DNA from: Candidatus Moraniibacteriota bacterium | GTDB taxonomy: Bacteria; Patescibacteriota; Minisyncoccia; Moranbacterales; UBA1568 | Length of the DNA stretch: 64,000 nucleotides | Direction of reading: 5' to 3' | Assembly: GCA_018061645.1 (NCBI GenBank) | Contig: JAGOTT010000002.1 | Span: forward strand, 23,842 to 87,841 | Shown here: positions 1,405-53,859 of the stretch, piece by piece | How the letters are laid out: the number at the start of each line of letters is the position of its first letter | Position numbering within the stretch: position 1 is the first letter of the stretch | Translations under genes and position numbers: made by a program | Notes under the pieces: model-generated | What the model saw: the letters and a program-made list of their open reading frames with translations, nothing else | The model's database searches: none | What the model was told of the DNA's origin: nothing

Positions 1405-1516
1405 AAAAAGTTCTTCTGTTATAAGCACCAAATTCAAAATTACAAATCCCAAATAAATTCCAATATCAAAATAATAAATTCAAAACGTTTCTGTTTTAGA
1501 ATCTTGGATTTATGAT

Positions 1517-5376: not shown

Positions 5377-6331
5377 TCTCTCGGACTTCCACCGGAAAGC
5401 CGGGCGGGAGCATTTGCCGTGGCGTCGGAAGGGAATCGGTGTCTATGGGATATGGGCGTCGGAAATCATGCTTCAACAGACGCAAGTCGGGCGGGTGATC
5501 CCGTATTATGAGAAGTTTCTTTCGCGGTTTCCGAATGTCGAGTCGCTCGCCCGGGTTTCGTGGGAAGAGTTTCTCCCGTATTACCAGGGACTCGGGTACT
5601 ATGCACGTGGGCGGAATATGCTTCGGACAGCGCGAATGATCGTTTCGGAGTATGGCGGGAAATTTCCGAGAGACGCGAAGGAGCTTGAGAAATTGCCAGG
5701 GGTGGGGCCGTATACGGCGGCGGCGATCGCGAGTTTCGCGTACGGCAAGGACACGGTCGCATGGGATACGAATCTCCGACGGGTCGTCGGGCGGTTTTTC
5801 TTCGGATCGAAAAAAGCCGATATCCCGAAGGAAAAAATCGAACCGCTGTTTTCCCTGAGGGCGAATGTGCTCAATGCGGCGATGATGGATTTCGGGTCGG
5901 CGATCTGTACGGCGCGACCGAAGTGCGGTGCGTGCCCGCTTTCGTCGCGGTGCGTGTATTTCAAGGAGAAAGGCACGCAAGAAACAAGGGACAAGAAACA
6001 AGATACAAAAATATCCAAAGTTTCAAGTCGAAAAGCTTCGGTCAATTGGAAAGATGCGCGGGTGTTCGTGACGCTCCACGAGAACCACAAGAAATATTAT
6101 TCGCCATTCAAGACAAGGTTTGCGCCGTTCGTCGTGCCGGCATCGCACAACACCCGTGCCGGCATCAAGGATTGGTTTCGACGGAAATACGGTCTCGGAC
6201 TCTCTGTTCGTCCGCCGCATAAAAGGGATATGCTCGATGGTCAACCGACGCTCTTCGTCAACACGCAGATTCTTTCCGGAAAACCGTCATTTTATGTCTT
6301 CAAGAGGAGTGATATGGATAATCGGGGCTAA
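5330..6331 (+). CDS. mutY: A/G-specific adenine DNA glycosylase (MutY family)
   Basis: LPWRR, HhH-GPD region, 4Fe-4S cysteine cluster CTARPKCGACPLSSRC. Start refined to ATG 5330 (MSAVLSKRKK...). Confidence 0.75.
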   Translation: MSAVLSKRKKDFFENILSDFHRKAGREHLPWRRKGIGVYGIWASEIMLQQTQVGRVIPYYEKFLSRFPNVESLARVSWEEFLPYYQGLGYYARGRNMLRTARMIVSEYGGKFPRDAKELEKLPGVGPYTAAAIASFAYGKDTVAWDTNLRRVVGRFFFGSKKADIPKEKIEPLFSLRANVLNAAMMDFGSAICTARPKCGACPLSSRCVYFKEKGTQETRDKKQDTKISKVSSRKASVNWKDARVFVTLHENHKKYYSPFKTRFAPFVVPASHNTRAGIKDWFRRKYGLGLSVRPPHKRDMLDGQPTLFVNTQILSGKPSFYVFKRSDMDNRG

Positions 6332-10863: not shown

Positions 10864-10986
10864 GATGGGAGAATCGCAGAATGAAGAATGATGATTGAAG
10901 AATTGAAGACTCCTATTTTAAAATCTGCAATCCACGATCCTCATTCATCATTCCGCGTAAACCAAAAACAGGCTAACAAAACGTCT

Positions 10987-20675: not shown

Positions 20676-20691
20676 GGTTTCGTGCTTAAAA

Positions 20692-21096
20692 TGTGGAGTT
20701 GATGGGAATCGCACCCATGTCCAAAATGTTTCTTCAAAATAATCTACAAGCTTAGCGTGTCTTGGGTGATACTGAGGGGTAAAAGATACGCGAAATCCCT
20801 TCAGGATCGTTTCTTCGTGCATACGGCTCAAGGCGGGAAAAAACGGAAGTCGCCTCTTGTCGTCCCGATAATATGACACCGAACGTTCCTACCGGGAATC
20901 AGGCGTTCGATGGCTCCGCACTAAACTGAATTAGGCGAGGGCAGGCGCGAAAGAAGGGGCAAACGCTTGCGCGAATGCGTTCTTGGCCTTGGTGATGAAG
21001 TTTGCATTTATCATCGTGGAAGCGAGTTTTTCGATCATACTTCCGAGATCGGCTTGCATATTTTGAATGTGCATCCTGTCGAAACTAGGCAACCCC
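20692..21096 (-). ncRNA. ssrA: tmRNA (ssrA)
   Basis: 5' GGGGTTGCCTAGTTTCGACAGG (canonical tmRNA start). Tag frame GCAAACTTC...GCCTAA = ANFITKAKNAFAQAFAPSFAPALA*. 3' T-arm GGGTGCGATTCCCAT and acceptor CAACTCC pairing with the 5' GGGGUUG. smpB is ~150 nt away on the same strand. Confidence 0.75.
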
Positions 21097-21120
21097 AGAC
21101 ATTGCGGAGCAATGTAATTT

Positions 21121-21240
21121 CTAATAACCAAGCTCCAATTTCCAAACAATGATCAATCACCAAATTGCAAGAACCAAACGGAAACCGATTTGATTTTTGG
21201 AAATTGGAAATTATTTGGAAATTGGAATTTGGTTATTGGT
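21121..21240. repeat. AT-rich palindromic intergenic island (arms ~28 nt: aataaccaagctccaatttccaaacaat / revcomp)
   Basis: The left half is the reverse complement of the right half (ggaaattggaaattatttggaaattggaatttggttattgg). Related islands occur at 1441-1560, 13735-13800, 28441-28500, 46624-46739, 49205-49270 and 54531-54660. Confidence 0.6.
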
Positions 21241-21243
21241 CAT

Positions 21244-21684
21244 TTAATTCAAATGCCTTCGCATTTGAATTTTTGCTTCTCGCTTCTTGATCGTTTCGCG
21301 CTTGTCGTAGGATTTTTTTCCTTTTCCCACGGCGAATTCGAGCTTTATGAGCTGGTTCTTAGTATAGACCCGGATAGGGACGAGTGTCAAGCCTTCTACG
21401 CGTGATTTTCCTATCAATGAGCGGATTTCCGAACGCTTGAGAAGGAGCTTTCTCGGTCTGGCATCCTCGTTCTTGGTATCCTTGTGGGCGTGTTCGTAGC
21501 GTGGAATGAGCGAATTCGTAAGGTAGAGCTCGTTTCCGTGGGTGGTGACGAAGGCGCCTTTCAGGCTGATATGACCTGTTTTCGCCGCCTTTACCTCGTT
21601 TCCGGTCAAAACCAAGCCCGCCTCGTACCGGTCGAGGAGTTCATAATCGAAACTTGCCCGTTTGTTGACAGCGAGTGTTTTCAT
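21244..21684 (-). CDS. smpB: SsrA-binding protein SmpB
   Basis: MKTLAVNKRASFDYELLDRYEAGLVLTGNEVKAAK... Confidence 0.85.
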   Translation of the reverse strand: MKTLAVNKRASFDYELLDRYEAGLVLTGNEVKAAKTGHISLKGAFVTTHGNELYLTNSLIPRYEHAHKDTKNEDARPRKLLLKRSEIRSLIGKSRVEGLTLVPIRVYTKNQLIKLEFAVGKGKKSYDKRETIKKREAKIQMRRHLN

Positions 21685-31176: not shown

Positions 31177-32341
31177 CATGAATCGGATGCGATCACATTT
31201 CTTGGCAAACGAAGGCGTGTCGGTCGGTCGGACCGGTATGCTTCTGACGGGAAGCGGGGAGATGCGAACCCCGTTTTTCATGCCGGACGCGACCAAGGGA
31301 TCGGTCAAGGGGGTCTCCCTGTCAGACCTCGAAAGTGTCGGTGTCGGACCGATGGTCGTGAATACCTATCACCTTCAGCTTGCGCCCGGAGCGGATTTCA
31401 TCGGTGAAGCGGGCGGTGTTCATCGGTTCATGGGGTGGGATAAGCCTCTTCTTTCGGATTCCGGCGGATATCAGGTTTATTCGCTCATACATGGGAATCC
31501 GGATATGGGACGGATCACCGAGGATGGGGCGGAATTCCGCTCAGTGATCGACGGAGCGAAGCATTTCTTGACGCCGGAGCGGGCGGTTCAGATCCAATTC
31601 GATCTCGGTGTCGATATGATGGTATGTCTCGACGATCCGCGACCGAACGACGTATCCGAGGAGGAGATGGCGGCGTCCGTCGACCGGACGATCCGGTGGG
31701 CGAAGCGGTGCCGCGAGGAATATGATCGGCAGGTCGCCGAGAGAGAGCTTTCGGATGAGAGTCGGCCGCTTCTGTTCGGGGTGGTGCAGGGCGGGACGAG
31801 CGTGGGGTTACGGAGGAAGTGTGTCGCCGCTCTCGTCGATATCGGATTCGACGGATACGGGTTCGGTGGGCGACATGTGGATGTGGCGGGGAATTTTCTT
31901 GAGGAGATCATCCGGGAAACGGCGACAGCTATCCCTGAGGATAAACCGCGGTTTGCGCTCGGCATCGGGACGCCTGAGGACATAGTCCGTTGCTATCGTC
32001 TCGGCTGGGATATGTTCGACTGCGTTATCCCGACGCGCGAAGGCCGGCATGGCCGACTTTTCCGATGGAAAAATCAGGATACAGGATACAGGATACAGGA
32101 TACGAACCCCTCGGATTTCTACGAGACGATCAATATCAGTAACGAGCAGTTCAAAGAGGATTTTTCTCCGGTGGACGAGACATGCGATTGCGAGTTATGC
32201 CGGAATCATACGAAAGCGTACCTACGCCATCTTTTCCGTGTCGGGGACTCGCTCGGCGGTCGTCTCGCGTCGATTCATAATCTCCGTTTCTATATGCGGC
32301 TCATGGAGTCGCTTCGTCATCACGGTATTGACAAAAAGTAA
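31163..32341 (+). CDS. tgt: queuine tRNA-ribosyltransferase
   Basis: MRTPFFMPDATKG, LSDSGGYQV and the zinc site CDCELCRNH...H. Contains a (CAGGATA)4 tract. Confidence 0.85.
   Translation: MSFRNMNRMRSHFLANEGVSVGRTGMLLTGSGEMRTPFFMPDATKGSVKGVSLSDLESVGVGPMVVNTYHLQLAPGADFIGEAGGVHRFMGWDKPLLSDSGGYQVYSLIHGNPDMGRITEDGAEFRSVIDGAKHFLTPERAVQIQFDLGVDMMVCLDDPRPNDVSEEEMAASVDRTIRWAKRCREEYDRQVAERELSDESRPLLFGVVQGGTSVGLRRKCVAALVDIGFDGYGFGGRHVDVAGNFLEEIIRETATAIPEDKPRFALGIGTPEDIVRCYRLGWDMFDCVIPTREGRHGRLFRWKNQDTGYRIQDTNPSDFYETINISNEQFKEDFSPVDETCDCELCRNHTKAYLRHLFRVGDSLGGRLASIHNLRFYMRLMESLRHHGIDKK
32075..32102 (+). repeat. (CAGGATA)x4 heptanucleotide tract inside tgt
   Basis: aaatCAGGATACAGGATACAGGATACAGGATAcgaac, encoding KNQDTGYRIQDTN. 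Confidence 0.85.
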
Positions 32342-39159: not shown

Positions 39160-40596
39160 ATGCAAGAAAGAACTGAAAACAAGCCTTTTTACATAACGAC
39201 GACCCTGCCGTACGTGAACGGTCGACCGCACCTGGGACATATCCTCGAATTCGTACAGGCGGATGTTTTGGCGCGCATGGCGCGAGCACGCGGGGACGAG
39301 GTGATCTTCAATGTCGGCACGGATGAGCATGGGCAGAAGATATTCCAGAAGGCCACTGAAGAAAGCATCACTCCACAGGAATACTGTGACCGGATGTCGG
39401 AGCACTTCCGCATAGTCAAAGAGACGCTCGATGTGAGTTATACGCATTTCATCCGCACGACCGATCCGCATCATGTCGCTGCCGCGCAGGAATTCTGGCG
39501 GCGATGCGAAGCGAGTGGCGATATCTACAAGAAACAGTATAAGACGAAGTACTGCGTCGGGTGCGAACTCGAGAAGACGGATTCGGATCTCGACCACGGG
39601 AAATGTCCGGATCATCCGAATATGGAAATCGAGACCGTCGACGAGGAAAACTATTTCTTCCGATTCTCGAAGTACCAGGACGCGCTCTTGAAGCTCTACG
39701 ATGAGCGGCCGGATTTCGTCGTGCCGAAGAATCGTCTCGTGGAAATCCGCAATTTCGTCGCAGGCGGACTCCGGGATTTTTCCATCTCGCGTCTCGCGAC
39801 GAAGATGTCATGGGGGATTCCGGTTCCCGGTGATGAGGAGCACGTCATGTACGTGTGGTTCGACGCGCTCGCGAACTATGTGACCACGTTGGGCTGGCCC
39901 GAGGACGAGACGAATTTCAGGAAATTCTGGCCGGGACTCCAGATCGCCGGGAAGGACAATCTTCGCCCGCAGTCCGCCATGTGGCAGGCGATGCTCCTTT
40001 CTGCCGGAATGGAGCCGTCGCGGCAGATCCTCATCCATGGGCATGTCATGAGCGGCGGGACGAAGATGTCGAAATCGCTCGGGAACGTGATCTCACCCGA
40101 CGAGCTCGTGGAGAAATTCGGCAAGGACGGGACACGGTATCTGCTGCTTTCTTCGGGAAATCTCGAGAACGATCCGGATATCACGATGGAGCGGCTCACG
40201 GAGAAATACAACGCCGACCTCGCGAACGGACTGGGAAACCTCGTTTCACGCGTTTTGAAACTGTCTGAAAAACTGGATCCCCGGGTCAAGTCCGAGGATG
40301 ACAAAGCGGGTGCATTTCCTGAAGAGCTTGCGAAGATTCTCGATGAATACCGGTTCGCGGATGCGACGGAGTATGTGATGGGACTCGTGCGCGAGGCGAA
40401 CAGGCATATCGACGACGAAAAACCGTGGGAACTCGTGAAGACCGACATGGAGCGATTTGACGGCGTGATGCGCGTGCTGCTCGACCGGCTCGCCTTCATC
40501 GCTTCCGCGCTCGCGCCGCTCCTCCCCGAAACCTCGGCAAAAATCACGAAGGCGCTTGCGGAAGGAAAAGTTGAACCGCTTTTCAAGAGGGTCTAG
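39160..40596 (+). CDS. metG: methionine--tRNA ligase
   Basis: PYVNGRPHLGHILEF (HIGH) and KMSKSLGN motifs. Confidence 0.9.
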   Translation: MQERTENKPFYITTTLPYVNGRPHLGHILEFVQADVLARMARARGDEVIFNVGTDEHGQKIFQKATEESITPQEYCDRMSEHFRIVKETLDVSYTHFIRTTDPHHVAAAQEFWRRCEASGDIYKKQYKTKYCVGCELEKTDSDLDHGKCPDHPNMEIETVDEENYFFRFSKYQDALLKLYDERPDFVVPKNRLVEIRNFVAGGLRDFSISRLATKMSWGIPVPGDEEHVMYVWFDALANYVTTLGWPEDETNFRKFWPGLQIAGKDNLRPQSAMWQAMLLSAGMEPSRQILIHGHVMSGGTKMSKSLGNVISPDELVEKFGKDGTRYLLLSSGNLENDPDITMERLTEKYNADLANGLGNLVSRVLKLSEKLDPRVKSEDDKAGAFPEELAKILDEYRFADATEYVMGLVREANRHIDDEKPWELVKTDMERFDGVMRVLLDRLAFIASALAPLLPETSAKITKALAEGKVEPLFKRV

Positions 40597-40673
40597 ATAG
40601 ACATCAAGTATTTCGCATAAGGGAATTATGAATTTCCATACGTGATACAAGATACGGTATACGCAATACGACC

Positions 40674-41612
40674 ATGATCGACATCCATACCCATCTTCAT
40701 TTCAAGGACTACGACGCGGATCGCGACGCGGTGATCGCGCGTGCGCGTGAAGCTGGGGTGGAGAAGATGATCCTGGTCGGGACGGACCTCGAATCGTCGC
40801 GCACGGCAATCGCACTTTCGGAGAAGCATGATTTTCTGTTCGCATCGGTCGGCATCCACCCTCACTTTTTCAACGAAGTTGAAAAAGAATTTCCAATTTC
40901 CAATTTCCAATTTCCAAACAAATCCCAATTTCCAATTTCCAAATTTCAAACGGAAATCAAAGGAATAACGGAGCTAGCGAAACATCCGAAGGTCGTGGCG
41001 ATCGGGGAGTGTGGGCTGGATTACTTCGTACGCAACGAGCAAGGAGCAACGAACAATGAGCAGGGAGGAGCAATCAGCAATCAACAGAAGAAAATCCAAG
41101 AAGAAGGATTTTTGGCACAGATGGAAATCGCGAAGGAACTCGGTCTGCCGCTCATCATCCACACTCGCCCCTCCGTTGGCACGATGGATGCCTACGAAGA
41201 TGTTTTCGAGATTCTGAAAAATCATTTATCACTCATCCCGCATCCCGCATCTGCTTTCATCCTCCACTGTTATCAGGGTGACACGGAAATCACGAAGAAA
41301 CTTCTCGGACTGCCGAACGCGCATTTTTCTTTTGCGGGAAGTGTCACCTATCCGGTAAAAAAATCGCTTATTGGAACGAAGGATGATTCCTCGGAGGTCG
41401 TAAAACTTGTACCGATGGAGCGAATTTTTGTCGAGACGGATTGCCCGTATCTTGCGCCGCAGCCGATGCGCGGGAGTCGCAACGAGCCGGCGTATGTCAC
41501 GATGACCGCGGAGCGGATGGCGGAAACGAAGGGGACGGATGTCAAGGAACTGGAATCGACCATAAACCGGGTCTTTTCAAGGGTTTTCGGAAGGAGTAAG
41601 ATGGAAACGTAA
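40674..41612 (+). CDS. TatD-family metal-dependent DNase with two low-complexity insertions
   Basis: IDIHTHLHF N-terminal histidine motif, then the conserved GECGLDY and further catalytic His/Asp motifs. Insertions FPISNFQFPNKSQFPISKFQ and NEQGATNNEQGGAISNQQ. Confidence 0.75.
   Translation: MIDIHTHLHFKDYDADRDAVIARAREAGVEKMILVGTDLESSRTAIALSEKHDFLFASVGIHPHFFNEVEKEFPISNFQFPNKSQFPISKFQTEIKGITELAKHPKVVAIGECGLDYFVRNEQGATNNEQGGAISNQQKKIQEEGFLAQMEIAKELGLPLIIHTRPSVGTMDAYEDVFEILKNHLSLIPHPASAFILHCYQGDTEITKKLLGLPNAHFSFAGSVTYPVKKSLIGTKDDSSEVVKLVPMERIFVETDCPYLAPQPMRGSRNEPAYVTMTAERMAETKGTDVKELESTINRVFSRVFGRSKMET
40891..40950 (+). repeat. CCAATTT heptamer tandem array (~9 units) in-frame inside tatD
   Basis: ttccaat ttccaat ttccaat ttccaaa caaatcc caatttc caatttc caaattt caaa. 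Confidence 0.85.
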
Positions 41613-41631
41613 TCAGGATAATCTCAACTGT

Positions 41632-42162
41632 ATGATGAACTTCGATATGCCGGTGGCGAAGAAAGATGATGGTCCGAAAATCAATCCGGACGGGACGGTG
41701 GAGTTTATCTTCGCGACCGATGAGGAAAAAGCGGCTCTCGCGGAGGCGAAAGCGGCGGGTATTGCCAAAAACAGAGAAACCGGCGGATCGGGAAGAATCC
41801 TCTCTTCCAAGGAAAAGGCAGGGAATTGGTATGGACAGGACACCGGTCCGGAAGGTTCATCGGAATGGGTTCTTGATCCGGAGAAGCCCGTGGCTGCGGT
41901 GGTGGAGACGACCGTGGAAAGCTTGAAGGGAGAGGATTCTCTGACAAGGTTGACGAGGCAAATCGATGATATCGCGAAGAAACGCGCCGATATATTGCTC
42001 CAGTTGGTTCAGGCAACCGACGAAGTCGAGAAGAATCGTCTGCGGGCGCTTTCGGATGCGCTTGAGAAAGGGTACGCCACCAGGATGAGGGAATACGAGG
42101 ATATGACCGGCGTATCACAGGAAGTAAGTGATGTCGAGGAAAGTGATAAGCTCGTAGCCTGA
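41632..42162 (+). CDS. hypothetical acidic protein
   Basis: ORF only. Confidence 0.4.
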   Translation: MMNFDMPVAKKDDGPKINPDGTVEFIFATDEEKAALAEAKAAGIAKNRETGGSGRILSSKEKAGNWYGQDTGPEGSSEWVLDPEKPVAAVVETTVESLKGEDSLTRLTRQIDDIAKKRADILLQLVQATDEVEKNRLRALSDALEKGYATRMREYEDMTGVSQEVSDVEESDKLVA

Positions 42163-42167
42163 AGAAT

Positions 42168-43418
42168 ATGAACGACAAGTCATTCGTTCCAGAATCGACC
42201 CAGACCGAATCGGTGTTCGATTTTCCGGATACATCCTCCGCTGTCGGATCCGATGACGATGCTTCCGTAGACCAATTGCGGACCGAGCTTGTCAGAAAGG
42301 AGAAATTGCTCGGTCAGGTCGATACGTATCTCGAAAAAAATATCGCCGAACGGATACGCGCTACCGATGACAAACGTATCGACGCGGAATACGGGGAGAA
42401 ACTCGACTCCGGATATCTGAAAATGGCGACACACGGAGACGACATCGAGAAGAGGATAATCGCCATCAGAAAGGCGATCGGTGTCGATCCCGAAGGAAAA
42501 AATATTCCTGCGGTGTCGGAGAACATGGATTCCGTTGCTACCACCGGCACTGTTCCCGTTTGTGAAAAAAATATCGCCGGACGTATGTTTTCCGGTTTCC
42601 GCGGATTGATTCGGAAAATCTTTTCCGGTTTCAGGGGAGGATTTTCGGGGAAAGGGATTTCCGATGAAAATCTTGCCGCGCCGGTGGAAACGCTTCCGCC
42701 TGAGAAAAAACCGGTGTTGCCAGTTGTCGGGAAATTCGGGATGAACGGCGTTTCGGAATATCGGAGCGATGGCGCGCTTCCGACCGGTTGGGGGGCGATT
42801 GGAAATGCATCGGACCCGTATGCGGCGGAGCGGTATCCGCATGAGGGCGGTATATCGGACAAGGAAAACGTTCCGATCGAACCTGACGCAGAACTCGCGA
42901 AAGCCCTTTCGGAGCCTTCCGAGTATGATAATGTGCGCCGTCTGCGGGAGCGTGACTGGATGGGATTTTCGGAAGTTCATCGGGAAGGGGCTGCTGGAAT
43001 CGGTATGGATGAATGGCTGGAGAAGAAGCGGCGTGCCGATGTGCCTGACACCAAGATATTCGGAGCCGTTCCGGAAGACCAGTACCGCATCGAAGAAATC
43101 GGGGCGACACGGGCGATGGGGGATGTTGTCACGCTCAAGACTACCCTCGAGGATGTCGAAAGGATGGCAAAGGAACATCCGGATCTCGCGGAAACCTACG
43201 CTGTCCAACGGGATATCGCGGGTCGAGCCTATGCGGAAGCTCTCGGAGTCGCCCGGTTCGCGCTTGCGGCGGAGCTTCGTGGCGAACCGGAGGGCGAGCA
43301 TCGGAAGGCGCTCATGAAGGATTTCTCTTTTGTTGTAGCCGAATTGCGTCGCATCGGCGAGTCGTCGCCCGAAACGTCGGTTTCGGAGGAGGAGGCTTCC
43401 GATAGGAGGGCAGCCTGA
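42168..43418 (+). CDS. hypothetical acidic protein (416 aa)
   Basis: ORF only. Antisense ORFs are rejected. Confidence 0.45.
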   Translation: MNDKSFVPESTQTESVFDFPDTSSAVGSDDDASVDQLRTELVRKEKLLGQVDTYLEKNIAERIRATDDKRIDAEYGEKLDSGYLKMATHGDDIEKRIIAIRKAIGVDPEGKNIPAVSENMDSVATTGTVPVCEKNIAGRMFSGFRGLIRKIFSGFRGGFSGKGISDENLAAPVETLPPEKKPVLPVVGKFGMNGVSEYRSDGALPTGWGAIGNASDPYAAERYPHEGGISDKENVPIEPDAELAKALSEPSEYDNVRRLRERDWMGFSEVHREGAAGIGMDEWLEKKRRADVPDTKIFGAVPEDQYRIEEIGATRAMGDVVTLKTTLEDVERMAKEHPDLAETYAVQRDIAGRAYAEALGVARFALAAELRGEPEGEHRKALMKDFSFVVAELRRIGESSPETSVSEEEASDRRAA

Positions 43419-43433
43419 ACGAGTCCGGAAAAA

Positions 43434-43468
43434 GAAAAGCGCCCCACGTGTTGCGTCGGGGCGTTTTG
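43434..43468. terminator. bidirectional terminator GCGCCCC...GGGGCG with T-runs on both strands
   Basis: aaaagcgccccacgtgttgcgtcggggcgttttgctg, between convergent genes. Confidence 0.5.
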
Positions 43469-43472
43469 CTGT

Positions 43473-44162
43473 CTATGGAAGGGGGAATGGGAACCTGCGT
43501 ATCGTGAGGGATGTCTCCCGATCAGCGAGCGAGGAGAGCGCGGTGAGGAACTTCCAGGGGTTTTCCGATGGAGCCTCACCGAAGATTTCGGCGACGATCC
43601 GATCGTCCGATTTCGTCGCGTACCACTCCGTAAATGACCGTTTGGCTCGGAGGAGTCGGATAGTGTCCTTGGGATCCGCGTTTCCGAGAAGAAGCGCATT
43701 CCAGCATTCTTCCGCGACGAAGCGGATCCGCTCTCCGGCGAGTATGGTTATAGATTCGCAATGCGATCTTCCGGAGGTGTCCATGCCGGGAGCGGTCGAA
43801 ACCCGGATCTCTTCGAGAACGGTTTCCCAGAACAGGTGTTTCGAAAGCGTCCAACGGTATCGATCAAGGATTGGTCCAAGCGGTTTTCTCGTCGCAAAAT
43901 GACGTCTGTCGATCGTACGTGCAAGCCGGAGGACTTCTGCGAAGTACCGTTTCGCGGCGAAGACGATTTCCTGTCTCGGATCATCGTGGTCGTCATTGGT
44001 AGACTCGCCGACGCTTCCGGTGACAGGAATGATGAGAGACATCCAGGATGCATGAGGGCTGGCGTGGGATCCCGGGATATTCGGGGGGGTGGTGTTCTGA
44101 AGCGAGTCATTCGCGGCTTCTGTGGCCGCAACGGTAAAAAGCGGTGCGGCGCGTGAAGTCAT
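43473..44162 (-). CDS. hypothetical protein (229 aa)
   Basis: ORF with protein-like composition. Terminator downstream. Confidence 0.4.
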   Translation of the reverse strand: MTSRAAPLFTVAATEAANDSLQNTTPPNIPGSHASPHASWMSLIIPVTGSVGESTNDDHDDPRQEIVFAAKRYFAEVLRLARTIDRRHFATRKPLGPILDRYRWTLSKHLFWETVLEEIRVSTAPGMDTSGRSHCESITILAGERIRFVAEECWNALLLGNADPKDTIRLLRAKRSFTEWYATKSDDRIVAEIFGEAPSENPWKFLTALSSLADRETSLTIRRFPFPLP

Positions 44163-44296
44163 GAGAAACTCCTCACTGTGAAAAATATGTGGCCCCTTCC
44201 GGGGCGGAATTGGTAATGAGCCATCGAAGATGTATATACCGTAATCGTATCTTTGTCAAGAATGAGTGCCTCCCGTTATCGGAATTTTTTTAAGCT

Positions 44297-44325
44297 TTGA
44301 CACTTTCCGGTTTCGGATATATACT
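44297..44325 (+). promoter_or_regulatory. consensus sigma70 promoter TTGACA-17-TATACT upstream of atp operon
   Basis: TTGACActttccggtttcggataTATACT. Confidence 0.55.
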
Positions 44326-44328
44326 TGG

Positions 44329-44359
44329 TGGCGTCGCGACGATTGCGACGTCATTTTTT
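44329..44359 (+). other. GC hairpin + T7 immediately at predicted transcript start (5' stabiliser or attenuator)
   Basis: ggCGTCGCgacgattGCGACGtcattttttt. Confidence 0.4.
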
Positions 44360-44372
44360 TGTTTGAATTTTC

Positions 44373-44560
44373 TGAGAGCCTGTTGAATATCTCATGTCGA
44401 GTTGCAAACTCGGAAATTCCGCGCGAAAATCATGAAAAGTAAGAAGGGATACTATCGTATCCCGACAAGCTTTGAATGGTTTGCAGCCGGAATTTCCGAG
44501 TTTCAGCCGACAAGCACTTGTTTTTCTTTTATTCATGCGGTGAGATATTAAACAGGCTCT
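44373..44560. repeat. 188-nt nested palindrome in atp leader
   Basis: Outer arms tgagagcctgttgaatatctca / tgagatattaaacaggctct. Inner arms cgagttgcaaactcggaaattccg / cggaatttccgagtttcagc. Apex hairpin GGGATACtatcGTATCCC. Confidence 0.6.
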
Positions 44561-44570
44561 GTTCGATCGT

Positions 44571-45326
44571 ATGGAAATATCCATCGCGGCGGAAAAACTT
44601 TTCGGTTTCGGAACATTCCCCATCACGAACTCACTTCTGCTCGCTGTCTCTTTGAGCGCGCTCCTGTCGGGGGCCGTTTTTGTTTTCCTGCGGAAGCTCG
44701 AGGAAATCCCGCGCGGGGTGCAGAACGCCGTCGAGGCGGTGTTCGAGGCGCTCCTCTCGCTCATCGAGAGCGTGACCCAGGACAAGGTGCAGGCGAGAAA
44801 GTTCTTTCCGCTCATCGCGACGATTTTTCTCTTCGTGCTCTTCTCGAACTGGGCGGGGCTGCTCCCCGGTGGCGGGACGGTCGGCGTTCACGGTGAGCAC
44901 GGGGGGCATGAGACGGTCATTCCGTTCCTTCGCAGTCCGTCGGCGGATCTCAATATGACGCTTGCGCTCTCGCTGATTTCCGTTTTTTCGATCCAGTTCG
45001 CGGGCATCGCCGCTTTGGGTCTTCGCGGATATGCGTCGAAATTCTTCGTCGCGCCGTGGACCAAGCCCTATGGTATCGGTACCGCGGTCGGACTCCTCGA
45101 GCTTATCGGGGAATTCGCGAAGATCCTTTCATTTTCATTCCGGCTCTTCGGAAACGTGTTCGCGGGGGAAGTGCTTTTGACCGTCATGCTCCATCTGGTC
45201 CCGTATACCATCCCGCTCCCGTTCCTGTTTCTCGAGGTGTTCGTCGGAGTCATCCAGGCGCTCGTGTTCGCGCTTCTGACGCTTGTCTTCCTTAAGATGG
45301 CGACCATCGGGCACGAGAGTCATTAG
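44571..45326 (+). CDS. atpB: ATP synthase Fo subunit a
   Basis: Five to six TM helices. Conserved Arg in ...FRLFGNVFAGE.... Confidence 0.85.
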   Translation: MEISIAAEKLFGFGTFPITNSLLLAVSLSALLSGAVFVFLRKLEEIPRGVQNAVEAVFEALLSLIESVTQDKVQARKFFPLIATIFLFVLFSNWAGLLPGGGTVGVHGEHGGHETVIPFLRSPSADLNMTLALSLISVFSIQFAGIAALGLRGYASKFFVAPWTKPYGIGTAVGLLELIGEFAKILSFSFRLFGNVFAGEVLLTVMLHLVPYTIPLPFLFLEVFVGVIQALVFALLTLVFLKMATIGHESH

Positions 45327-45398
45327 AGATGAAAATTACGACGTGCGACGTGCGTATTTGGAAACAAGTAGGCAGTTCGCAATCCGTAATATAATTAA

Positions 45399-45635
<237 letters not shown>

Positions 45636-45637
45636 TC

Positions 45638-45737
45638 AGTTAACAGATAACAGAAAACAAAAAACAGGGAGCGCTGCTGTCTGTCATCGCATCTCTCCTG
45701 GGATTATTGTTGGCTGTTTATCGTTTTTTGTTGACTG
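45638..45737. repeat. inverted CAGNTAA heptamer arrays flanking the atpE-atpF spacer
   Basis: cagttaa cagataa cagaaaa caaaaaa cag ... ctgtttatcgttttttgttgactg. Confidence 0.55.
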
Positions 45738-45740
45738 TCT

Positions 45741-46229
45741 ATGGAAGCACTTGTGAAACTGGGTATCGACTGGAAACTGCTGCTCGCGCAGGCAGTGAAC
45801 TTTGTCGTGCTGCTCCTCGTCCTGCGTCGGTTCGCCTATCGTCCGATGCTCGAATTCCTCGACAAGCGCGCGGGAAGGATAGAGCAGGGGCTTAAGGACG
45901 CCGAAGCGGCCGGAAAGCGGCTCGAGGAGGCGGCGCGGAAGGAGGAAGAGCTTCTTGCTGCGGCGCGTGAAGAAGCGAAGGGTCTGGTCGCGAAGGCGGA
46001 AATCGCCGCTGAGAAGCGAGCCGAGGCGATCATGACGCAGGTTGCGGCGAAATCGGAAGCGATTTTCGAGGAAGCGAAGAAGCATGCGGAGGCGGAACGG
46101 GAAAAGATTTTCCGTGAAGCCAAGGAAGAGCTTGCGACGCTTGTGCTTTCGGCGACGGAGAAGATCCTCGGCGAGAAATCATCCGGCAAGGACAAGGAAA
46201 TCGCGGAACGGTTTTTGAACGAAAAGTGA
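45741..46229 (+). CDS. atpF: ATP synthase Fo subunit b
   Basis: N-terminal TM then a long charged helix. Confidence 0.8.
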   Translation: MEALVKLGIDWKLLLAQAVNFVVLLLVLRRFAYRPMLEFLDKRAGRIEQGLKDAEAAGKRLEEAARKEEELLAAAREEAKGLVAKAEIAAEKRAEAIMTQVAAKSEAIFEEAKKHAEAEREKIFREAKEELATLVLSATEKILGEKSSGKDKEIAERFLNEK

Positions 46230-46230
46230 T

Positions 46231-46620
46231 ATGAAAGTATCGTCGTCACAATATGCGAAGACGTTGCTCGCGCTTTCCGATACGGGAGACGTGCGTCGGA
46301 TTGCCGCATCGTTCCTGGCGCTCGTCCGGAGAAACCGCGCGGCGAAGCGGCTTCCGGCGATCCTCCGGATGGCGGAGCGCCTTTCGGACGAGCGCGACGG
46401 GGTGATATCACTTTCGGTCGAGACGGCGACCGAGGCGGATGCATCGGTGCGGCAGGCTATCGAATCCGTCGTGGCGGGATTTTTTCCGGGGAAGCGGCCG
46501 GTGTTCAGATACGGAGTAGTTTTCGGTCTCGTGGGCGGCGCGCGGATTTCTTCCGATGACGAGATGATCGATGCGACGGTCCGTAGGAGATTGATTGAAC
46601 TTGAAAAGGCACTGCGCTGA
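46231..46620 (+). CDS. atpH: ATP synthase F1 subunit delta (OSCP)
   Basis: Position and size fit. MKVSSSQYAKTLLAL.... Confidence 0.75.
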   Translation: MKVSSSQYAKTLLALSDTGDVRRIAASFLALVRRNRAAKRLPAILRMAERLSDERDGVISLSVETATEADASVRQAIESVVAGFFPGKRPVFRYGVVFGLVGGARISSDDEMIDATVRRRLIELEKALR

Positions 46621-46623
46621 TAG

Positions 46624-46739
46624 TCATTTTCCAATTCCCAGTAAGTTTTCATTTGTACGAATTCCTGGTTATTTTTGGAAATTGTTTCATTGATGATTCA
46701 TTGGTAATTGGAAATTGGTAATTGGAAATTGTTTCAAGT
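46624..46739. repeat. AT-rich island with ggtaattggaaattg repeats (atpH-atpA spacer)
   Basis: cattggtaattggaaattggtaattggaaattg; same CCAATTTCC family as 21121-21240. Confidence 0.5.
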
Positions 46740-48242
46740 ATGGCAAACACACTCATCGAGGAGCTGAAGCGGCAGATCGAATCCTTCGATCACGAGACGA
46801 AGAAGGAGAAGATTGGCCGGGTGATGGAAACGGGCGACGGCGTCGCGCGCCTCTCCGGTCTCTCGGACGTCGCGTCGTCGGAGATCGTCGAATTCGGAAG
46901 TGGGGCGATCGGCGTCGCGCAGAACCTCGAGGAATCCGAAGTCGGTGTGATGATTCTTTCCGGCGCGGAGGGCGTGAAAGAGGGCGAGACGGCGAAGGGA
47001 ACAGGACGACTGCTTTCCATCCCGGTGTCGGAAGGTATCGTCGGCCGGGTCGTTGATCCGCTTGGGGTACCGCTCGACGGACGGGGCGAGATCGTGGGCG
47101 AGAAGAAGCTCATGCCGATAGAAAAAGTGGCCCCCGGAGTCATCGCGCGCGAGTCGGTCAAGAAACCGCTTCAGACCGGTATCAAGGCGATCGATGCGCT
47201 CATTCCCGTCGGTCGCGGGCAGCGTGAACTCATCATCGGTGATCGGCAGACCGGCAAGACCGCGGTCGCGATCGATACGATCGTGAACCAGAAGGGGCAG
47301 GATGTTATCTGTATCTACGTCGCCATCGGACAGAAGGAATCCAAGGTCGCGCGCATCATGGGTGAATTGTCGAAGCGTGGCGCGATGGACTACACGGTCG
47401 TCGTGGTCGCCGGCGCGTCGAAGCCGGCCGCACTCTCGTTTCTCGCGCCGTATGCGGGAGCGGCGATCGGTGAATATTTCATGGAACAGGGGAAGGATGT
47501 GCTCGTGATCTATGATGATCTTTCCAAGCATGCCTGGGCGTATCGGCAGATCGCGCTCATCCTGCGCCGTCCGCCGGGACGCGAGGCGTATCCGGGCGAT
47601 GTGTTCTACCTCCACTCGCGGCTTCTTGAGCGGAGCGCCAAACTCTCCGCGGAAGAAGGCGGTGGATCGCTCACCGCGCTTCCGATTATCGAGACGCAAG
47701 CGGGTGACGTGTCGGCATATATCCCGACGAACGTTATCTCGATCACCGACGGTCAGATTTATCTCGAAAGCGATCTCTTCTACAAGGGTATCCGCCCGGC
47801 ACTCAACGTCGGATTGTCGGTCTCGCGCGTGGGATCGGCGGCACAGATCAAGGCGATGAAGCAGGTCGCAGGAACCTTGCGGCTCGACCTGGCGCAGTTC
47901 CGCGAGATGGAAGCCTTCGCACAGTTCGGTTCCGACCTCGACGAAGGGACGCGGAAACTCATCGATCGCGGGCGTCGCGCGGTGGAGCTCCTGAAACAGC
48001 CGCAATACGCGCCGCTCAAAGTCGAAGAAGAAGTTGCGGTGCTCTATGCGCTCTCTCGCGGACATCTCGACACCGTTCCGGCGGAAAAGATCCGCGAGTG
48101 GGAGACGGGAGTACTCTCGTATCTCCGGACCGAAGGCGAGGACGCGCTTGCCGGTATCCGTGAGAAGAAGGAACTGACCGAGGAAGTGGAGAAGGTGTTG
48201 AAGGAAAGAATAGAAGAATTCAACAAACGATTTCAGATTTAA
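46740..48242 (+). CDS. atpA: ATP synthase F1 subunit alpha
   Basis: GDRQTGKT Walker A. Start refined to ATG 46740 ([10 protein letters not shown]). Confidence 0.9.
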
Positions 48243-48269
48243 GATTTCAGAGTGAAGATTGTCGGATCA

Positions 48270-48300
48270 AATCTGCAATCGAAAATCTGCAATCTGCAAT
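48270..48300. repeat. AATCTGC heptamer array
   Basis: aatctgc aatcgaa aatctgc aatctgc aattc. The reverse complement of the same heptamer occurs in-frame in leuS at 52236-52270. Confidence 0.6.
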
Positions 48301-48304
48301 TCTT

Positions 48305-49204
48305 ATGGCTTCGACCAGGGACGTACAACGGCGGATAAAGGGCGTGAAGTCGACCGGGAAAATCACCCGGGCGATGGAGATGATTTCGGCCGTGAAGATG
48401 CGCAAGGCGGTCACGGCCGTGATGAACGTTCGTCCGTATGCGAAAGCCGTGCTCGTGGTATTGCGGCAGATGACGACCGTCGAACGGATGGGTGCGCATC
48501 CGTTTTTCATCGATCGCCCCGTGAAGCGCGAGTGCTATGTCGTCGTCTCGTCGAACCGCGGACTCTGCGGCGGGTTCAACTCGCAGATCATGAAGCGTCT
48601 CCGTGCCATCCGCGAGGCGGATGCGGACCGGGAGGCGGAGTTTGTCACCATCGGCAAGAAAGCCGACGGGATCGTCCGGAGATTGGGGGGCGAGATTATT
48701 GCGTCCTTTCCGGACGTGCTCGCGACGCCGACCGCCGAGAATCTCCGCCCGATCGCGAAGATGCTCGTCGCGAAATTCCTCGGGGGCGAGATCGACCGCG
48801 CGGTCATGGTCTATACGGACTTCGTGTCGGTGCTCTCGCAGGTCGTGAAGGTGCGTGCGCTCCTGCCGGTCGTAGAAAAGGACGTTCTGAAAGCGCTTCA
48901 CGAGATGGATCCGAAAGCGGATGTTTCGGTGGATGAGATCGAAGCGGAATATGTGGTCGAGCCGGCGACGGAGGAGATGCTCGAGCGGCTCATCTTGCAA
49001 CTCCTCACGATGGAACTCTACCACGGTGTGTTCGAGTCGAATGCCAGCCAGGAGGCTGCGCGTATGATCGCGATGCGCAACGCGACTGACGCCGCCAAGG
49101 AGATGGTGGAAAACCTGACGCTTTCCTACAACCAGCTCCGTCAGGCGAAGATCACCGCCGAAATCGCCGAACTCTCGGCAGGGAAAGCGGCCCTTGAAAC
49201 GTAG
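48305..49204 (+). CDS. atpG: ATP synthase F1 subunit gamma
   Basis: MASTRDVQRRIKGVKSTGKITRAMEMIS... Confidence 0.85.
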   Translation: MASTRDVQRRIKGVKSTGKITRAMEMISAVKMRKAVTAVMNVRPYAKAVLVVLRQMTTVERMGAHPFFIDRPVKRECYVVVSSNRGLCGGFNSQIMKRLRAIREADADREAEFVTIGKKADGIVRRLGGEIIASFPDVLATPTAENLRPIAKMLVAKFLGGEIDRAVMVYTDFVSVLSQVVKVRALLPVVEKDVLKALHEMDPKADVSVDEIEAEYVVEPATEEMLERLILQLLTMELYHGVFESNASQEAARMIAMRNATDAAKEMVENLTLSYNQLRQAKITAEIAELSAGKAALET

Positions 49205-49283
49205 TTTCAAGAAATTTCAAATGACAAATTCCAAAAACCAAACAAATCACAGATTCCAAATTCAAAAACACAAAATGTAGAAG

Positions 49284-49352
49284 TGTCATCCTGAGTGAAA
49301 CGAAGAATCCCGGTGTGAGAACGGGATTCCTCGACAGACTCGGAATGGCAAG
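49284..49352. repeat. E-element copy 2
   Basis: TGTCATCCTGAGtgaaaCGAAGAATCCCGgtgtgagaaCGGGATTCCTCGAcagaCTCGGAATGGCAA. The inner stem is perfect and shows compensatory changes relative to copy 1. Confidence 0.6.
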
Positions 49353-49386
49353 AAATGAAGTGAAGAGTTCTGACCTATCATTTTGA

Positions 49387-50891
<1,505 letters not shown>

Positions 50892-51438: not shown

Positions 51439-53859
51439 ATGGATAAGCGATATTCCCCGAAAACCATAGAGCCGAAATGGCAGAAAGAATGGGAAGAAAA
51501 AGGGATTTTCCGTCAGTATGACCGGAAGAAGAGATTCTACGTACTCGACATGTTCCCGTATCCGTCCGGAACCGGTCTTCATGTCGGTCATCCGAAAGGG
51601 TATATCGCGACCGATGTGGTGGCGCGGATGAAACAGCTACAGGGCTTCGGCGTGCTCCACCCGATGGGTTGGGATGCGTTCGGACTTCCGGCGGAACAGT
51701 TTGCCATTAAGAACAAGATGCATCCGAGTATCGCTGTGAAAGAGAATATCGGAACCTACAAGAAACAGATGGAAGCCATCGGGTTTTCCTATGATTGGGA
51801 GCGGGAAATCGATACGACGGACCCGGAGTATTACAGATGGACGCAGTGGATATTCCTCAAGATGTTCGAAAAGGGACTCGCGTACGAGTCATATGAGCCG
51901 ATCAACTGGTGTCCGTCGTGTCAGACGGGACTGGCGAACGAGGATCTCGAGGACGGTGCGTGCGAACGCTGCGGGACGCAGGTCGAGAAGAAGCCGATGC
52001 GGCAGTGGGTACTCAGGATGACCGCGTACGCGGATCGGTTGCTTGCCGATCTCGATCGGACGGAGCTTGATTGGGAAGAGCAGATCAAGGAACAACAGCG
52101 GAACTGGATCGGACGGAGCGAAGGAGCGGAAGTCGAATTCCAAATCACGAATTCCAAATCAAAGATAAGAGTCTTTACCACGAGAGTTGACACTATTTTC
52201 GGGTGCACGTATGTGGTCGTGGCGCCGGAACATAGAATAATTGCAGATTGCGAATTGCAGATTGTAAATTTCGGAGAGGTCGAAGAGTATCTCGAGAAGA
52301 CAAAGAAAAAGTCCGATCTCGAGCGGACAGAACTGAACAAGGAAAAAACCGGCGTGAAACTCGAAGGCATCGAAGCGGTGAATCCGTTCACAGGGGAATC
52401 CGTACCGGTGTACGTTGCCGATTACGTACTCGGCTCATATGGCACGGGCGCCGTCATGGCAGTCCCGGCGCATGATGAGCGTGATTTCGAGTTCGCGAAG
52501 AAGTACGGACTTGATATAAGCACGGTGGTTTCCGGCGGAGATCAATCCGATGAAGTCGCATTTACCGAGGATGGGATGCTTGTAAACTCTGGTGATTTTT
52601 CTGGACTTTCATCCGCGGAGGCGAGGGAAAAGATGATGGCATGGATCGAGGAGAAAGGACTCGGCAGGAAGTCGGTGAAATACAAGATGCGGGACTGGAC
52701 GTTTTCGCGCCAACGATACTGGGGCGAACCGATCCCGATCGTTCATTGCGAGGAATGTGGCGCGGTGCCGGTCAAGGAGTCGGATCTTCCGGTGCGGTTG
52801 CCGGATGTGGAGTCGTATGAGCCGACGGGAACGGGAGAATCGCCGCTTGCGGATATAGATGAGTGGGTGAATGTGCCGTGCCCGAAGTGTGGGGGCGCAG
52901 GGAAGCGGGAGACGAATACGATGCCGCAGTGGGCGGGGTCGTGCTGGTATTACCTTCGGTTCATCGATCCGAAGAATGGCGGAGCGTTCGTCGGGGAAGA
53001 ATTGGAAAGGGAATGGATGCCGGTCGATCTTTATGTGGGTGGCGCGGAGCATGCGACGCGACATCTCCTCTATGCCAGATTCTGGCATAAGTTTCTCTTC
53101 GATATCGGTGTCGTTTCGACCGATGAGCCGTTCAAGAGGCTTGTTCACGTCGGACTCATCAATGCATCCGATGGGCGGAAGATGTCGAAGCGATGGGGGA
53201 ATGTGGTGAATCCGGACGATATCATCAGGGATTTCGGCGCGGACGCGCTCAGGCTCTATGAAATGTTCATGGGACCGTTCACGCAGAACATCGCCTGGAA
53301 TACCGAAGGACTCGTCGGGACGCGGCGATTCCTGGATAAGATATGGAAGCTTTCCGAGAAAGTGACAAGGAACAAGGAGAGAGGAACGAGTGGGAACGAA
53401 AAACTTGAAGCGGCTGTTCATCGGACGATCAGAAAGGTGACGGAAGATGTCGACGATTTCAAGTTCAATACCGCGATCAGCGCTCTTATGATTCTTGCGA
53501 ATGCGATGGAGAAGGAGAATCATGTATCGGACATCGTGTATCGGGAATTTCTTATCCTCCTCTCTCCCTTCGCGCCGCACATCGCGGAAGAACTCTGGGA
53601 AAGATCGGGAAACGAACAGTCGATCTTCCTTGAGAAATGGCCGCAGTACGACCCGGAGAAGGCGGTCGAAATGCAGGTGACAATCGCGGTTTCAGTGAAC
53701 GGGAAAGTGCGTGATATCATCACAGTCGCGAGGGATGCTTCGGAGGAAACGCTTCGATCGAAGGCGCTTTCGAATGAAAAGGTGCGGAAATATTTGGAGG
53801 AGAAGGAACCGAAAAAAGTTATCGTCGTTCCCGGTCGCATCGTCAATATCGTCATCTGA
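51439..53859 (+). CDS. leuS: leucine--tRNA ligase
   Basis: PYPSGTGLHVGH (HIGH) and KMSKRWGN motifs. Start refined to MDKRYSPKTIEPKWQ. In-frame heptamer arrays at 52141-52168 and 52236-52270. Confidence 0.9.
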   Translation: MDKRYSPKTIEPKWQKEWEEKGIFRQYDRKKRFYVLDMFPYPSGTGLHVGHPKGYIATDVVARMKQLQGFGVLHPMGWDAFGLPAEQFAIKNKMHPSIAVKENIGTYKKQMEAIGFSYDWEREIDTTDPEYYRWTQWIFLKMFEKGLAYESYEPINWCPSCQTGLANEDLEDGACERCGTQVEKKPMRQWVLRMTAYADRLLADLDRTELDWEEQIKEQQRNWIGRSEGAEVEFQITNSKSKIRVFTTRVDTIFGCTYVVVAPEHRIIADCELQIVNFGEVEEYLEKTKKKSDLERTELNKEKTGVKLEGIEAVNPFTGESVPVYVADYVLGSYGTGAVMAVPAHDERDFEFAKKYGLDISTVVSGGDQSDEVAFTEDGMLVNSGDFSGLSSAEAREKMMAWIEEKGLGRKSVKYKMRDWTFSRQRYWGEPIPIVHCEECGAVPVKESDLPVRLPDVESYEPTGTGESPLADIDEWVNVPCPKCGGAGKRETNTMPQWAGSCWYYLRFIDPKNGGAFVGEELEREWMPVDLYVGGAEHATRHLLYARFWHKFLFDIGVVSTDEPFKRLVHVGLINASDGRKMSKRWGNVVNPDDIIRDFGADALRLYEMFMGPFTQNIAWNTEGLVGTRRFLDKIWKLSEKVTRNKERGTSGNEKLEAAVHRTIRKVTEDVDDFKFNTAISALMILANAMEKENHVSDIVYREFLILLSPFAPHIAEELWERSGNEQSIFLEKWPQYDPEKAVEMQVTIAVSVNGKVRDIITVARDASEETLRSKALSNEKVRKYLEEKEPKKVIVVPGRIVNIVI

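Follow-up and report, generated by a model that had tools for sequence, protein, structure and literature searches.

The nested palindrome that lies upstream of atpB in the window (the whole stretch of 64,000 nucleotides that was analysed) is very probably a copy of a MITE, inserted between a conserved promoter and 5' hairpin on one side and atpB on the other, where it would be carried as a tolerated passenger. The insertion would have happened in an ancestor shared by the lineages of the window and of locus L082, when a 184-bp non-autonomous element entered a TGA lying downstream of the U-rich tract and ahead of the start codon. The element family was previously undescribed, yet an insertion of this sort is an ordinary kind of event. 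An earlier note on this DNA had left the choice between an inserted MITE co-opted into the leader and a regulatory RNA of large size and elaborate structure. Insertion was borne out by empty orthologous sites, dispersal in unrelated gene contexts and TNA target duplications; an RNA specific to the atp operon was not, the block being missing in relatives that keep the promoter and dispersed elsewhere.

Results

Anatomy and predicted fold of the atp leader

The top matches of the AtpB protein of the window were with Ca. Moranbacteria/Moraniibacteriota (CPR). The features of the leader are listed in Table 1. The near-consensus promoter and the GC hairpin followed by T7 that the earlier note had described are both present, the promoter being conserved at orthologous loci, and the coordinates of the palindrome, said to end 10 nt before the ATG of atpB, were verified.

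Table 1. Coordinates of the features of the atp leader (positions in the window)
Feature	Position	Strand	Remarks
Spacer	44163-44570		Between the minus-strand ORF 43473-44162 and atpB
atp promoter, TTGACA-17-TATACT	44297-44325	+	11/12 positions of the consensus; putatively active
Promoter-proximal GC hairpin + U7	44329-44360	+	Stem 44329-37 / 44345-53; T7 44354-44360
Target-site duplication, left copy	44373-44375		TGA; TTTCTGA at this place in the empty-site relative L086
Probable MITE ("nested palindrome"), 184 bp	44376-44559	+	Absent in orthologous leaders; homologous copies elsewhere
Left terminal inverted repeat	44376-44394		GAGCCTGTTGAATATCTCA
Inner arms	44406-44452 / 44457-44503		47 nt; apex GGGATACtatcGTATCCC
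Apex hairpin	44447-44464
Unmatched T-rich side branch	44513-44540		About 28 nt, on the 3' arm
Right terminal inverted repeat	44541-44559		18/19 positions match the left repeat
Target-site duplication, right copy	44560-44562		Degenerate, TGT (TGG in L082)
atpB (F0 subunit a; PF00119)	44571-45326	+	Heads atpB-E-F-H-A

A repeat-finding tool showed that the outer arms (44375-44394 and 44541-44560) are 95% complementary over 20 nt. The description of the palindrome as perfectly nested was right for its helices but not for its 3' arm, which carries the unmatched T-rich branch. Folding of the leader, which had been proposed as a check, gave a minimum free energy of -110.8 kcal/mol for the RNA versus -65.8 +/- 4.8 kcal/mol for shuffled sequences (z = -9.3; none of 200 shuffles was equal), and the opposite strand folded to -94. 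The element alone was predicted to form a single long hairpin of about -90 kcal/mol. The 5' UTR of the leader is about 239 nt long with the element and about 52 nt long after its excision in silico. The fold prediction placed the start codon of atpB within a small hairpin, AUGGAAAUAUCCAU, which was predicted, like the 5' hairpin and the U-tract, to be the same with or without the element, and the probability that the segment from the AUG to +12 is unpaired was 0.34 in both cases.

The Rfam 15 models run at their gathering thresholds on the window left the palindrome unmatched, with only a tmRNA and a tRNA elsewhere reaching the required score. A permissive search (E <= 10) of positions 44150-45750 gave three chance-level matches, none of which covered the palindrome; the only one on the leader, a weak match of TLS-PK5 over the 5' hairpin, scored 17.5 bits against a gathering threshold of 70. 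A consensus scan of the copy of the element in the window found no promoter inside it.

The copies of the family are 183-211 bp long, and the only ORF common to them is disrupted in most, in agreement with the small size and lack of coding capacity expected of a MITE. That the element encodes a small protein (ORF 44441-44560 in the window, MKSKKGYYRIPTSFEWFAAGISEFQPTSTCFSFIHAVRY) is therefore a reading to which we give practically no weight. The ORF is open from a conserved ATGAAA in the window, L082 and L005, and the motifs KGYYR, FAA and FQPTS are shared among these three. However, the amino-acid identity between the window and L005 is about 54% (21/39, counted by eye), far below the 79% identity of their nucleotide sequences. 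Five copies have ATA, CTG or GTG in place of the start codon, the frame is broken by indels of 1 nt (L094 and L100) and 22 nt (L097 and L106), and the substitutions track base pairing rather than codon position. The broken frames among the copies led us to reject a small protein.

Empty and filled orthologous sites

The leaders of the closest AtpB relatives were collected and aligned, a comparison of upstream regions that the earlier note had set in advance as a means of recognising an insertion. Locus L082 (AtpB 96% identical) had the entire leader, including the palindrome at the same site. The promoter and the hairpin with its U-run were present at loci L083, L084 and L085 (AtpB 88% identical), L086 (87%) and L088 (83%), and the block was absent from all of them, their leaders running directly to atpB (...TTTTTCCGGA|TCGTATG). 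At this orthologous site, the block was restricted to the window, an identical locus (L001) and L082, and the element was absent from about 18 other Moranbacteria atp loci. Since L083 to L088 share the promoter and the hairpin but have no block, about 187 nt set one small clade apart from its sister lineages, which do without them. Relatives with this promoter but no palindrome were the pattern named beforehand for an insertion. The note had also expected that, for an insertion, the relatives would be without the hairpin; the hairpin and U-run were instead kept, with covariation.

Dispersal of the family

A blastn search with the leader against 88 atp loci, confined to these loci, gave one further match, in another Moraniibacteriota MAG (L005; AtpB 69% identical), in which the element lies between atpB and atpE. 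This copy was also found by nhmmer, and the spacer that holds it is 261 nt long versus 72-81 nt in relatives. Because this first search was restricted to atp loci, a metagenome collection was scanned with a pattern made of two conserved inner blocks, TTTGCAGCCGN{9,13}TTTCAGCCGAC. The scan returned 18 loci, 13 of which carried the element by nhmmer (E 1e-25 to 1e-49); the remaining matches (L089, L096, L102, L103 and L104) were chance occurrences of the pattern, without the element. The neighbours of the 13 metagenome copies were unrelated genes and included rfbB (dTDP-glucose dehydratase), an hndD/nuoG-like gene, a nusA-like gene, ndk, recG, an ABC permease and a response regulator, and none of the 13 adjoined atp genes. 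With respect to their neighbours, seven members of the family were in the sense and four in the antisense orientation, and three were unclear. The hosts of L099 and L106 were identified as Ca. Moraniibacteriota, apparently a single MAG, from a protein accession (for L106, that of a 90% cluster mate).

A second, internally deleted copy was found in two contigs: L091 has a mini-copy of 32 bp and L101 a longer one of about 110 bp. Five of the 13 metagenome copies were cut inside the element at contig ends, as expected because repeats break assemblies. No second copy was found in the 64-kb window by arm searches allowing three mismatches, nhmmer with --max and fuzzy searches for terminal repeats, and two pattern scans of viral contigs gave no element. 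Searches by tblastn for orthologues in the window of the genes on the MITE-bearing contigs found none, the two matches obtained being distant (27% and 36% identity). The family thus shows both the dispersed copies and the presence/absence polymorphism of a MITE.

This distribution bears on a vertically inherited RNA dedicated to the atp operon, riboswitch-like or analogous to ATPC, which we consider very improbable. The very stable fold of the palindrome and its strong covariation agree with such an RNA, as do the positions of two copies just before atp start codons (atpB in the window and atpE in L005). However, both of these copies came from the search limited to atp loci, and the unbiased scan placed none beside atp genes. 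A dedicated RNA is also difficult to reconcile with the empty leaders of close relatives and of the other Moranbacteria, with target-site duplications and terminal inverted repeats on the copies, and with Rfam matches that did not rise above chance.

Ends of the element and target duplication

Across 11-16 aligned copies, similarity was lost exactly at the ends of the element. Its boundaries are therefore sharp, and the terminal inverted repeats found at them, of about 19-20 bp, exceed the at least 10-15 bp usual for a MITE. The ends of the family, GAGCCTGT... and GTATCTATCTC..., are flanked by TNA: TAA in L099 and L093, TTA in L094, L105 and the mini-copy of L091, TGA in L100 and TCA in L106. 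A perfect 3-bp TNA direct repeat was present in seven of 11 insertions, when chance would give 1/64 per copy, and the other four had a mismatch of one base: the insertion shared by the window and L082 (TGA/TGT and TGA/TGG, respectively) and those of L101, L097 and L005. The copies thus carry target-site duplications that differ among them, as those of MITEs do.

Two sub-families of terminal repeats were distinguished. The major one has GTATCTATCTCAAATCTCA..., and the minor one (GAGCCTGTTGAATATCTCA...) comprises the copies of the window, L082, L105 and L093. Between the sub-families, variation is greater in the outermost arms than further inside, an uncommon pattern if a transposase recognises the repeats.

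The IS1031 group of the IS5 family uses a TNA target and generates exclusively a 3-bp direct repeat (PMC12016507; PMC1676026), and both traits were found in the element. The terminal repeat of one member, ISLrh of Lacticaseibacillus rhamnosus, is GAACCTGTCTAGTATCT (PMC12016507). The left and right ends of the window copy, GAGCCTGTTGAATATCT and GAGCCTGTTTAATATCT, match it at 13/17 and 14/17 positions, respectively, and the right end of the L082 copy at 14/16, in a post hoc comparison with a single reference. The major sub-family, with its different ends (GTATCTATCTC...), is less like the ISLrh repeat. The element further differs from the IS1031 group in having no transposase gene, in its length (184 bp versus about 860 bp) and in being self-complementary over its full length, beyond the ends alone. 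No insertion sequence or transposase with matching ends was found in the window or at the 106 loci; an IS30-like transposase located 1.7 kb away from the copy in L094 was rejected, as it has no matching ends. The assignment to the IS1031 group consequently depends on the duplication and the terminal sequence. On these grounds, the element most likely derives from an IS1031-group (IS5 family) element, and it would have been moved in trans by a transposase of that group.

Conserved pairing and strand bias

RNAalifold applied to 11 full copies gave 68 pairs, 25 of which change on both sides. Paired cells amounted to 97.1%, versus 89.1% for shuffled controls and no more than 49% after the partners had been slid, at a mean column identity among copies of 76%. 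G-U-type cells outnumbered A-C-type cells by 26 to 6, and by 24 to 12 when the structure was predicted on the other strand. In each of the 11 copies the plus strand was the more stable one, by 2-24 kcal/mol. Sub-families of a transposon are expected to covary in their terminal repeats; the inner helices of the element covary too.

A double-stranded DNA transposon that inserts in both orientations leaves this strand bias unexplained. It may come from selection, acting either on the transcript or on an intermediate of single-stranded DNA, or from wobbles inherited from a few master copies. Selection on such an intermediate would suit an element of the IS200/IS605 type, associated with palindromes, or another element that moves as single-stranded DNA, and such an origin would account for the better folding of the plus strand in every copy and for the excess of G-T-type over A-C-type cells. 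We nevertheless hold it to be highly unlikely, as IS200/IS605 elements have neither terminal inverted repeats nor target duplications and the ends found here seem to resemble an IS1031-group repeat. The flanking triplet varies among copies but matches within a copy, so it is a true duplication, which argues against the IS200/IS605 type.

Divergence of the element within the atp leader

The window and L082 differ at four of the 184 positions of the element and, in atpB, atpE and atpF together, at 63 of 263 four-fold sites (24%; P ~6e-17 for the element under the synonymous rate). The four differences spare the helices: a compensatory pair (44409/44500), a change giving G-U at 44557 and one in a bulge at 44402. 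The tract of low divergence reaches position 44671, with no differences over the first 100 nt of atpB, and the other spacers of the operon diverge by 3.7% and 8.6%. More distant relatives showed only a partial depression of divergence at the 5' end. Because the tract extends into atpB, this comparison is not a clean test of purifying selection on the element in situ; constraint on the whole initiation region, or a recombination tract, could possibly explain the low divergence.

These results are relevant to the possibility that the MITE, once inserted, was co-opted to act in cis in the atp leader and is kept there by purifying selection. It might then serve as an RNase III site at which a new 5' end is made, as a hairpin that stabilises or insulates, or as an attenuator formed by the inner hairpin and the U-rich branch. 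The low divergence with all helices spared points in this direction, as does the better folding of the plus strand, which is the sense strand here. Its helices of 20 and 27 bp would be long enough for RNase III, which cuts Correia transcripts at their terminal repeats and thereby alters the expression of adjacent genes (PMC10969869; PMC2649163). Against this, the low divergence does not end at the element and is equally well explained by a recombination tract or by constraint on the initiation region, the remaining spacers of the operon are conserved too, close relatives operate the same operon without the element, and the family occurs in both orientations with respect to its neighbours. We regard co-option as possible but rather unlikely.

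The tolerated passenger that we prefer would be co-transcribed with the atp genes from the upstream promoter. In the predicted fold, the long hairpin of the element joins its two ends, which would bring the U-rich tract back near the start codon, and this tight folding may be what makes the passenger tolerable. A secondary effect on the processing or stability of the mRNA is possible, for example through RNase III as in Correia elements. The low divergence, the kept pairing and the strand bias together suggest selection on a single-stranded form, and are awkward for a mere passenger.

A broader reading of the same data is that the family is a mobile, strand-specific RNA module, whose hairpin is maintained because selection acts on the RNA made from one strand, and which is reused by CPR genomes as a portable cis element. 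The figures that speak for it are the 97% pairing at 76% identity, the ratio of G-U to A-C of about 4:1, the better folding of the plus strand in 11 of 11 copies, the compensatory change and a divergence about 10-fold lower than that of synonymous sites. We consider it unlikely. If it were true, the module could serve, for example, for processing, for insulation or for termination downstream of genes, and would here be part of the ATP synthase leader.

The promoter and the 5' hairpin

Transcription of the atp operon would start at about 44331-44333. The atp promoter, which looks like a strong one of the sigma-70 type, was the top-scoring of three promoter-like sites within 40000-50000; as 4.2 such sites are expected by chance, their count by itself is not significant. 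Identical hexamers with identical spacing were found at the orthologous loci L082, L083, L086 and L088, and related sites, TTGAC(N)-17-TA(N)A(N)T, in the majority of Moranbacteria atp leaders.

A hairpin with a U-run was present 0-14 nt from the -10 hexamer in 14 of 21 Moranbacteria atp loci. The sequences of the stems vary, and include GCGCT.., GGCGTCGC.. and GGCGGCG.. (with G-U pairs); the structure is kept at L083, L086, L088, L002, L008, L012, L018 and others, and the U-run is attached to the stem in all 14 loci despite the differing stem sequences. The distance from the stem to the ATG is 4-33 nt in the Moranbacteria atp loci, and 215 nt in the window and 216 nt in L082 because the element is inserted there. 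No Shine-Dalgarno sequence was visible upstream of atpB in the Moranbacteria atp leaders. Among the 13 strong promoter-like sites of the window, that of the atp operon was the only one followed immediately by a hairpin and a U-run. Judged from these alignments, the promoter with its hairpin and U-run is the ancestral atp leader and a genuine leader feature, conserved with covariation. Since the stems differ in sequence and use G-U pairs, the structure is selected at the RNA level. A DNA operator, for which the sequence would have been kept, was rejected as an explanation of the +1 hairpin.

The roles that the earlier note had proposed for the hairpin and its U7 (terminator, attenuator or 5' stabiliser) remain the right candidates. 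A terminator scan picked out the hairpin as resembling a terminator: it has 13 pairs, of which 6 are GC, and its tail is TTTTTGTTTG. It has the anatomy of an intrinsic terminator, namely a GC-rich stem, a short loop and a U-tract (6-7 U) immediately 3'. The hairpin could thus be a promoter-proximal terminator or attenuator, which would stop the majority of transcripts near +30, so that the expression of ATP synthase would depend on read-through. This canonical anatomy, the constant attachment of the U-run to stems of varying sequence, the fact that a mere 5' stabiliser would make the U-run superfluous, and the confinement of the arrangement to the atp promoter within the window all speak for attenuation. 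However, the ATG comes just 4-13 nt past the U-run in L012, L018, L002 and L008, and an efficient terminator so near to it would shut off an essential operon. In addition, no pairing partner for an anti-terminator was evident. We therefore hold attenuation only tentatively; if the +1 hairpin and U-run were a dedicated attenuator, they would control the expression of ATP synthase in Moranbacteria.

Stem-loops that stabilise the 5' end, of the ompA and aprE type, classically stand at the start of the transcript, and the stem begins at or beside the predicted +1. Lacking a Shine-Dalgarno sequence in these leaders, atpB could plausibly use the U-rich tract as a ribosome loading site. A 5'-terminal stabilising stem-loop followed by a U-rich loading region for this start codon is the reading that we favour, with somewhat better than even confidence.

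Discussion

Significance

The CPR/Patescibacteria have small genomes, from which few mobile elements have been described; in the literature that could be searched, we found no report of MITEs for Patescibacteria. The family described here is a clean and datable example inside the 5' UTR of an essential operon: orthologous sites occur both with and without the element, the duplication is TNA, and the ends look like those of the IS1031 group. It calls for caution, in that long conserved hairpins in CPR leaders are not to be taken for riboswitch-like RNAs. With five of 13 contigs ending within it, the element accounts for some assembly breaks, and it may be used as a sequence marker for Moraniibacteriota lineages. 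The promoter, hairpin and U-run before an atpB without a Shine-Dalgarno sequence are a small candidate for the control of ATP synthase in unculturable organisms.

Comparison with known systems

The hairpin and U7 of the atp leader resemble both 5' stabilising stem-loops and intrinsic terminators in having a GC stem from about +1 followed by a U-tract, with a structure that is kept and a sequence that varies. They differ from either class in showing the hallmarks of both, and their location directly before a start codon that has no Shine-Dalgarno sequence is typical of neither.

The ATPC RNA motif of cyanobacteria, known from Rfam, is located in the atp operon, where the genes of subunits a and c flank it. 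The likeness is positional only and concerns the L005 copy, which is structured and lies between atpB and atpE. The Rfam model of ATPC had no match to the leader of the window (E <= 10), and the element is mobile and mostly outside atp operons.

The Correia elements of Neisseria (CREE/NEMIS) are, like the element described here, intergenic MITEs of 100-200 bp that lie near gene starts, are co-transcribed and form long hairpins. They differ in duplicating TA and in carrying IHF sites and outward promoters, whereas the present element duplicates TNA and the consensus scan found no promoter in its window copy. The ERIC/IRU elements of enterobacteria and QMITE2 of Coxiella burnetii are likewise palindromic MITEs with very stable stem-loops in their transcripts. 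The terminal repeats of QMITE2 are 23-29 bp long and its predicted fold is about -113 kcal/mol, and transcripts of both ERIC/IRU and QMITE2 can change mRNA stability depending on their orientation (PMC10969869). Their hosts, sequences and duplication lengths differ from those of the element, and sequence similarity was neither found nor expected. The palindrome of the atp leader nevertheless resembles the palindromic bacterial MITEs represented by Correia, ERIC and QMITE2, and it has every feature of a MITE for which it was tested.

Strand asymmetry and copies of the MITE

Comparison of the 11 copies of the MITE, the palindromic mobile element of the atpB leader, in alignment A5 showed that the RNA fold of the + strand was the more stable one in every copy (11/11), and that the ratio of G-U to A-C cells was 26:6. 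This asymmetry of the fold was maintained despite the presence of copies in both orientations relative to the neighbouring genes.

The atp operon of another Moraniibacteriota MAG (L005) carries a copy between atpB and atpE (positions 3826-4008). The end of this copy lies 15 nt from the ATG of atpE, a little upstream of an AAGGA Shine-Dalgarno sequence, and the copy is flanked by the triplets ATG and ATA, a degenerate duplication. Internally deleted derivatives were found on the same contig as full copies in two metagenome contigs, L091 and L101 (see table). In one sub-lineage the terminal hairpin is extended by 22 nt inserted at its apex (TATCCGAAGAGCATGAGGATCC). Among the metagenome copies, the two with ends closest to those of the window (GAGCCTG...) were located on contigs L093 and L105, with a G+C content of 39%, whereas that of the window is 54%; this difference hints that the sub-family with these ends is spread over rather different hosts.

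Positions of repeats, MITE derivatives and the divergent promoter
Feature	Location	Strand	Context
32-bp MITE mini-element GAATCTATCTCATCTCATGTCGAGAGAGATAC	L091 501-532	minus	TTA/TTA flanks
~110-bp MITE variant without apex	L101 455-545	minus	
MITE copies of the 22-nt-insertion sub-lineage	L097 120-330; L106 1359-1568; L098 164-273		
Divergent candidate promoter, TTGACA (44259-44254)-17-TATACA (44236-44231)	window	minus	ahead of ORF 43473-44162
AT-rich imperfect palindromes, arms 49-54 nt	window 21111-21249; 1430-1543		
Short tandem arrays	window 5978-6008; 10878-10909; 32075-32103; 40888-40947; 41032-41062; 46700-46731; 48229-48300; 52134-52161; 52239-52270		

Surroundings of the atp leader

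The first 100 nt of atpB showed no nucleotide difference between the window (44563-44671) and L082, an atp locus with the MITE at the same site, and 24% of the four-fold sites differ overall between these two lineages. This absence of divergence is due either to a recombination tract in which the MITE is included or to strong constraint acting on the 5' part of the coding region.

The atp promoter is arranged back to back with a minus-strand candidate promoter (44259-44231) serving a minus-strand ORF, the leader of which contains a GC hairpin (44205-44192) and the ATG of which is preceded by GAGGAG. The leader alignment showed that the -35 box of this divergent promoter is kept in L083, L085 and L088, three atp loci of relatives without the MITE.

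Other repeats of the window

Many tandem arrays of about 30 nt each, with a period of 7 or 14 and units unrelated to one another, are present in the window; the units include CAAGAAA, AGAATGA, CAGGATA, AATTTCC, GCAACGA, ATTGGTA/ATTGGAA and AATCTGC, among others. Two arrays, both in frame, are contained in the TatD-like ORF 40674-41612, where AATTTCC x 8.9 encodes FPISNFQFPNKSQFPISKFQ, and other short arrays are held by the spacers of the atp operon.

The two AT-rich palindromes, one of which adjoins the tmRNA gene (20691-21096), showed no sequence relationship to the MITE of the atp leader. They are built from CCAAAT/ATTTGG-like words and may represent another repeat family.
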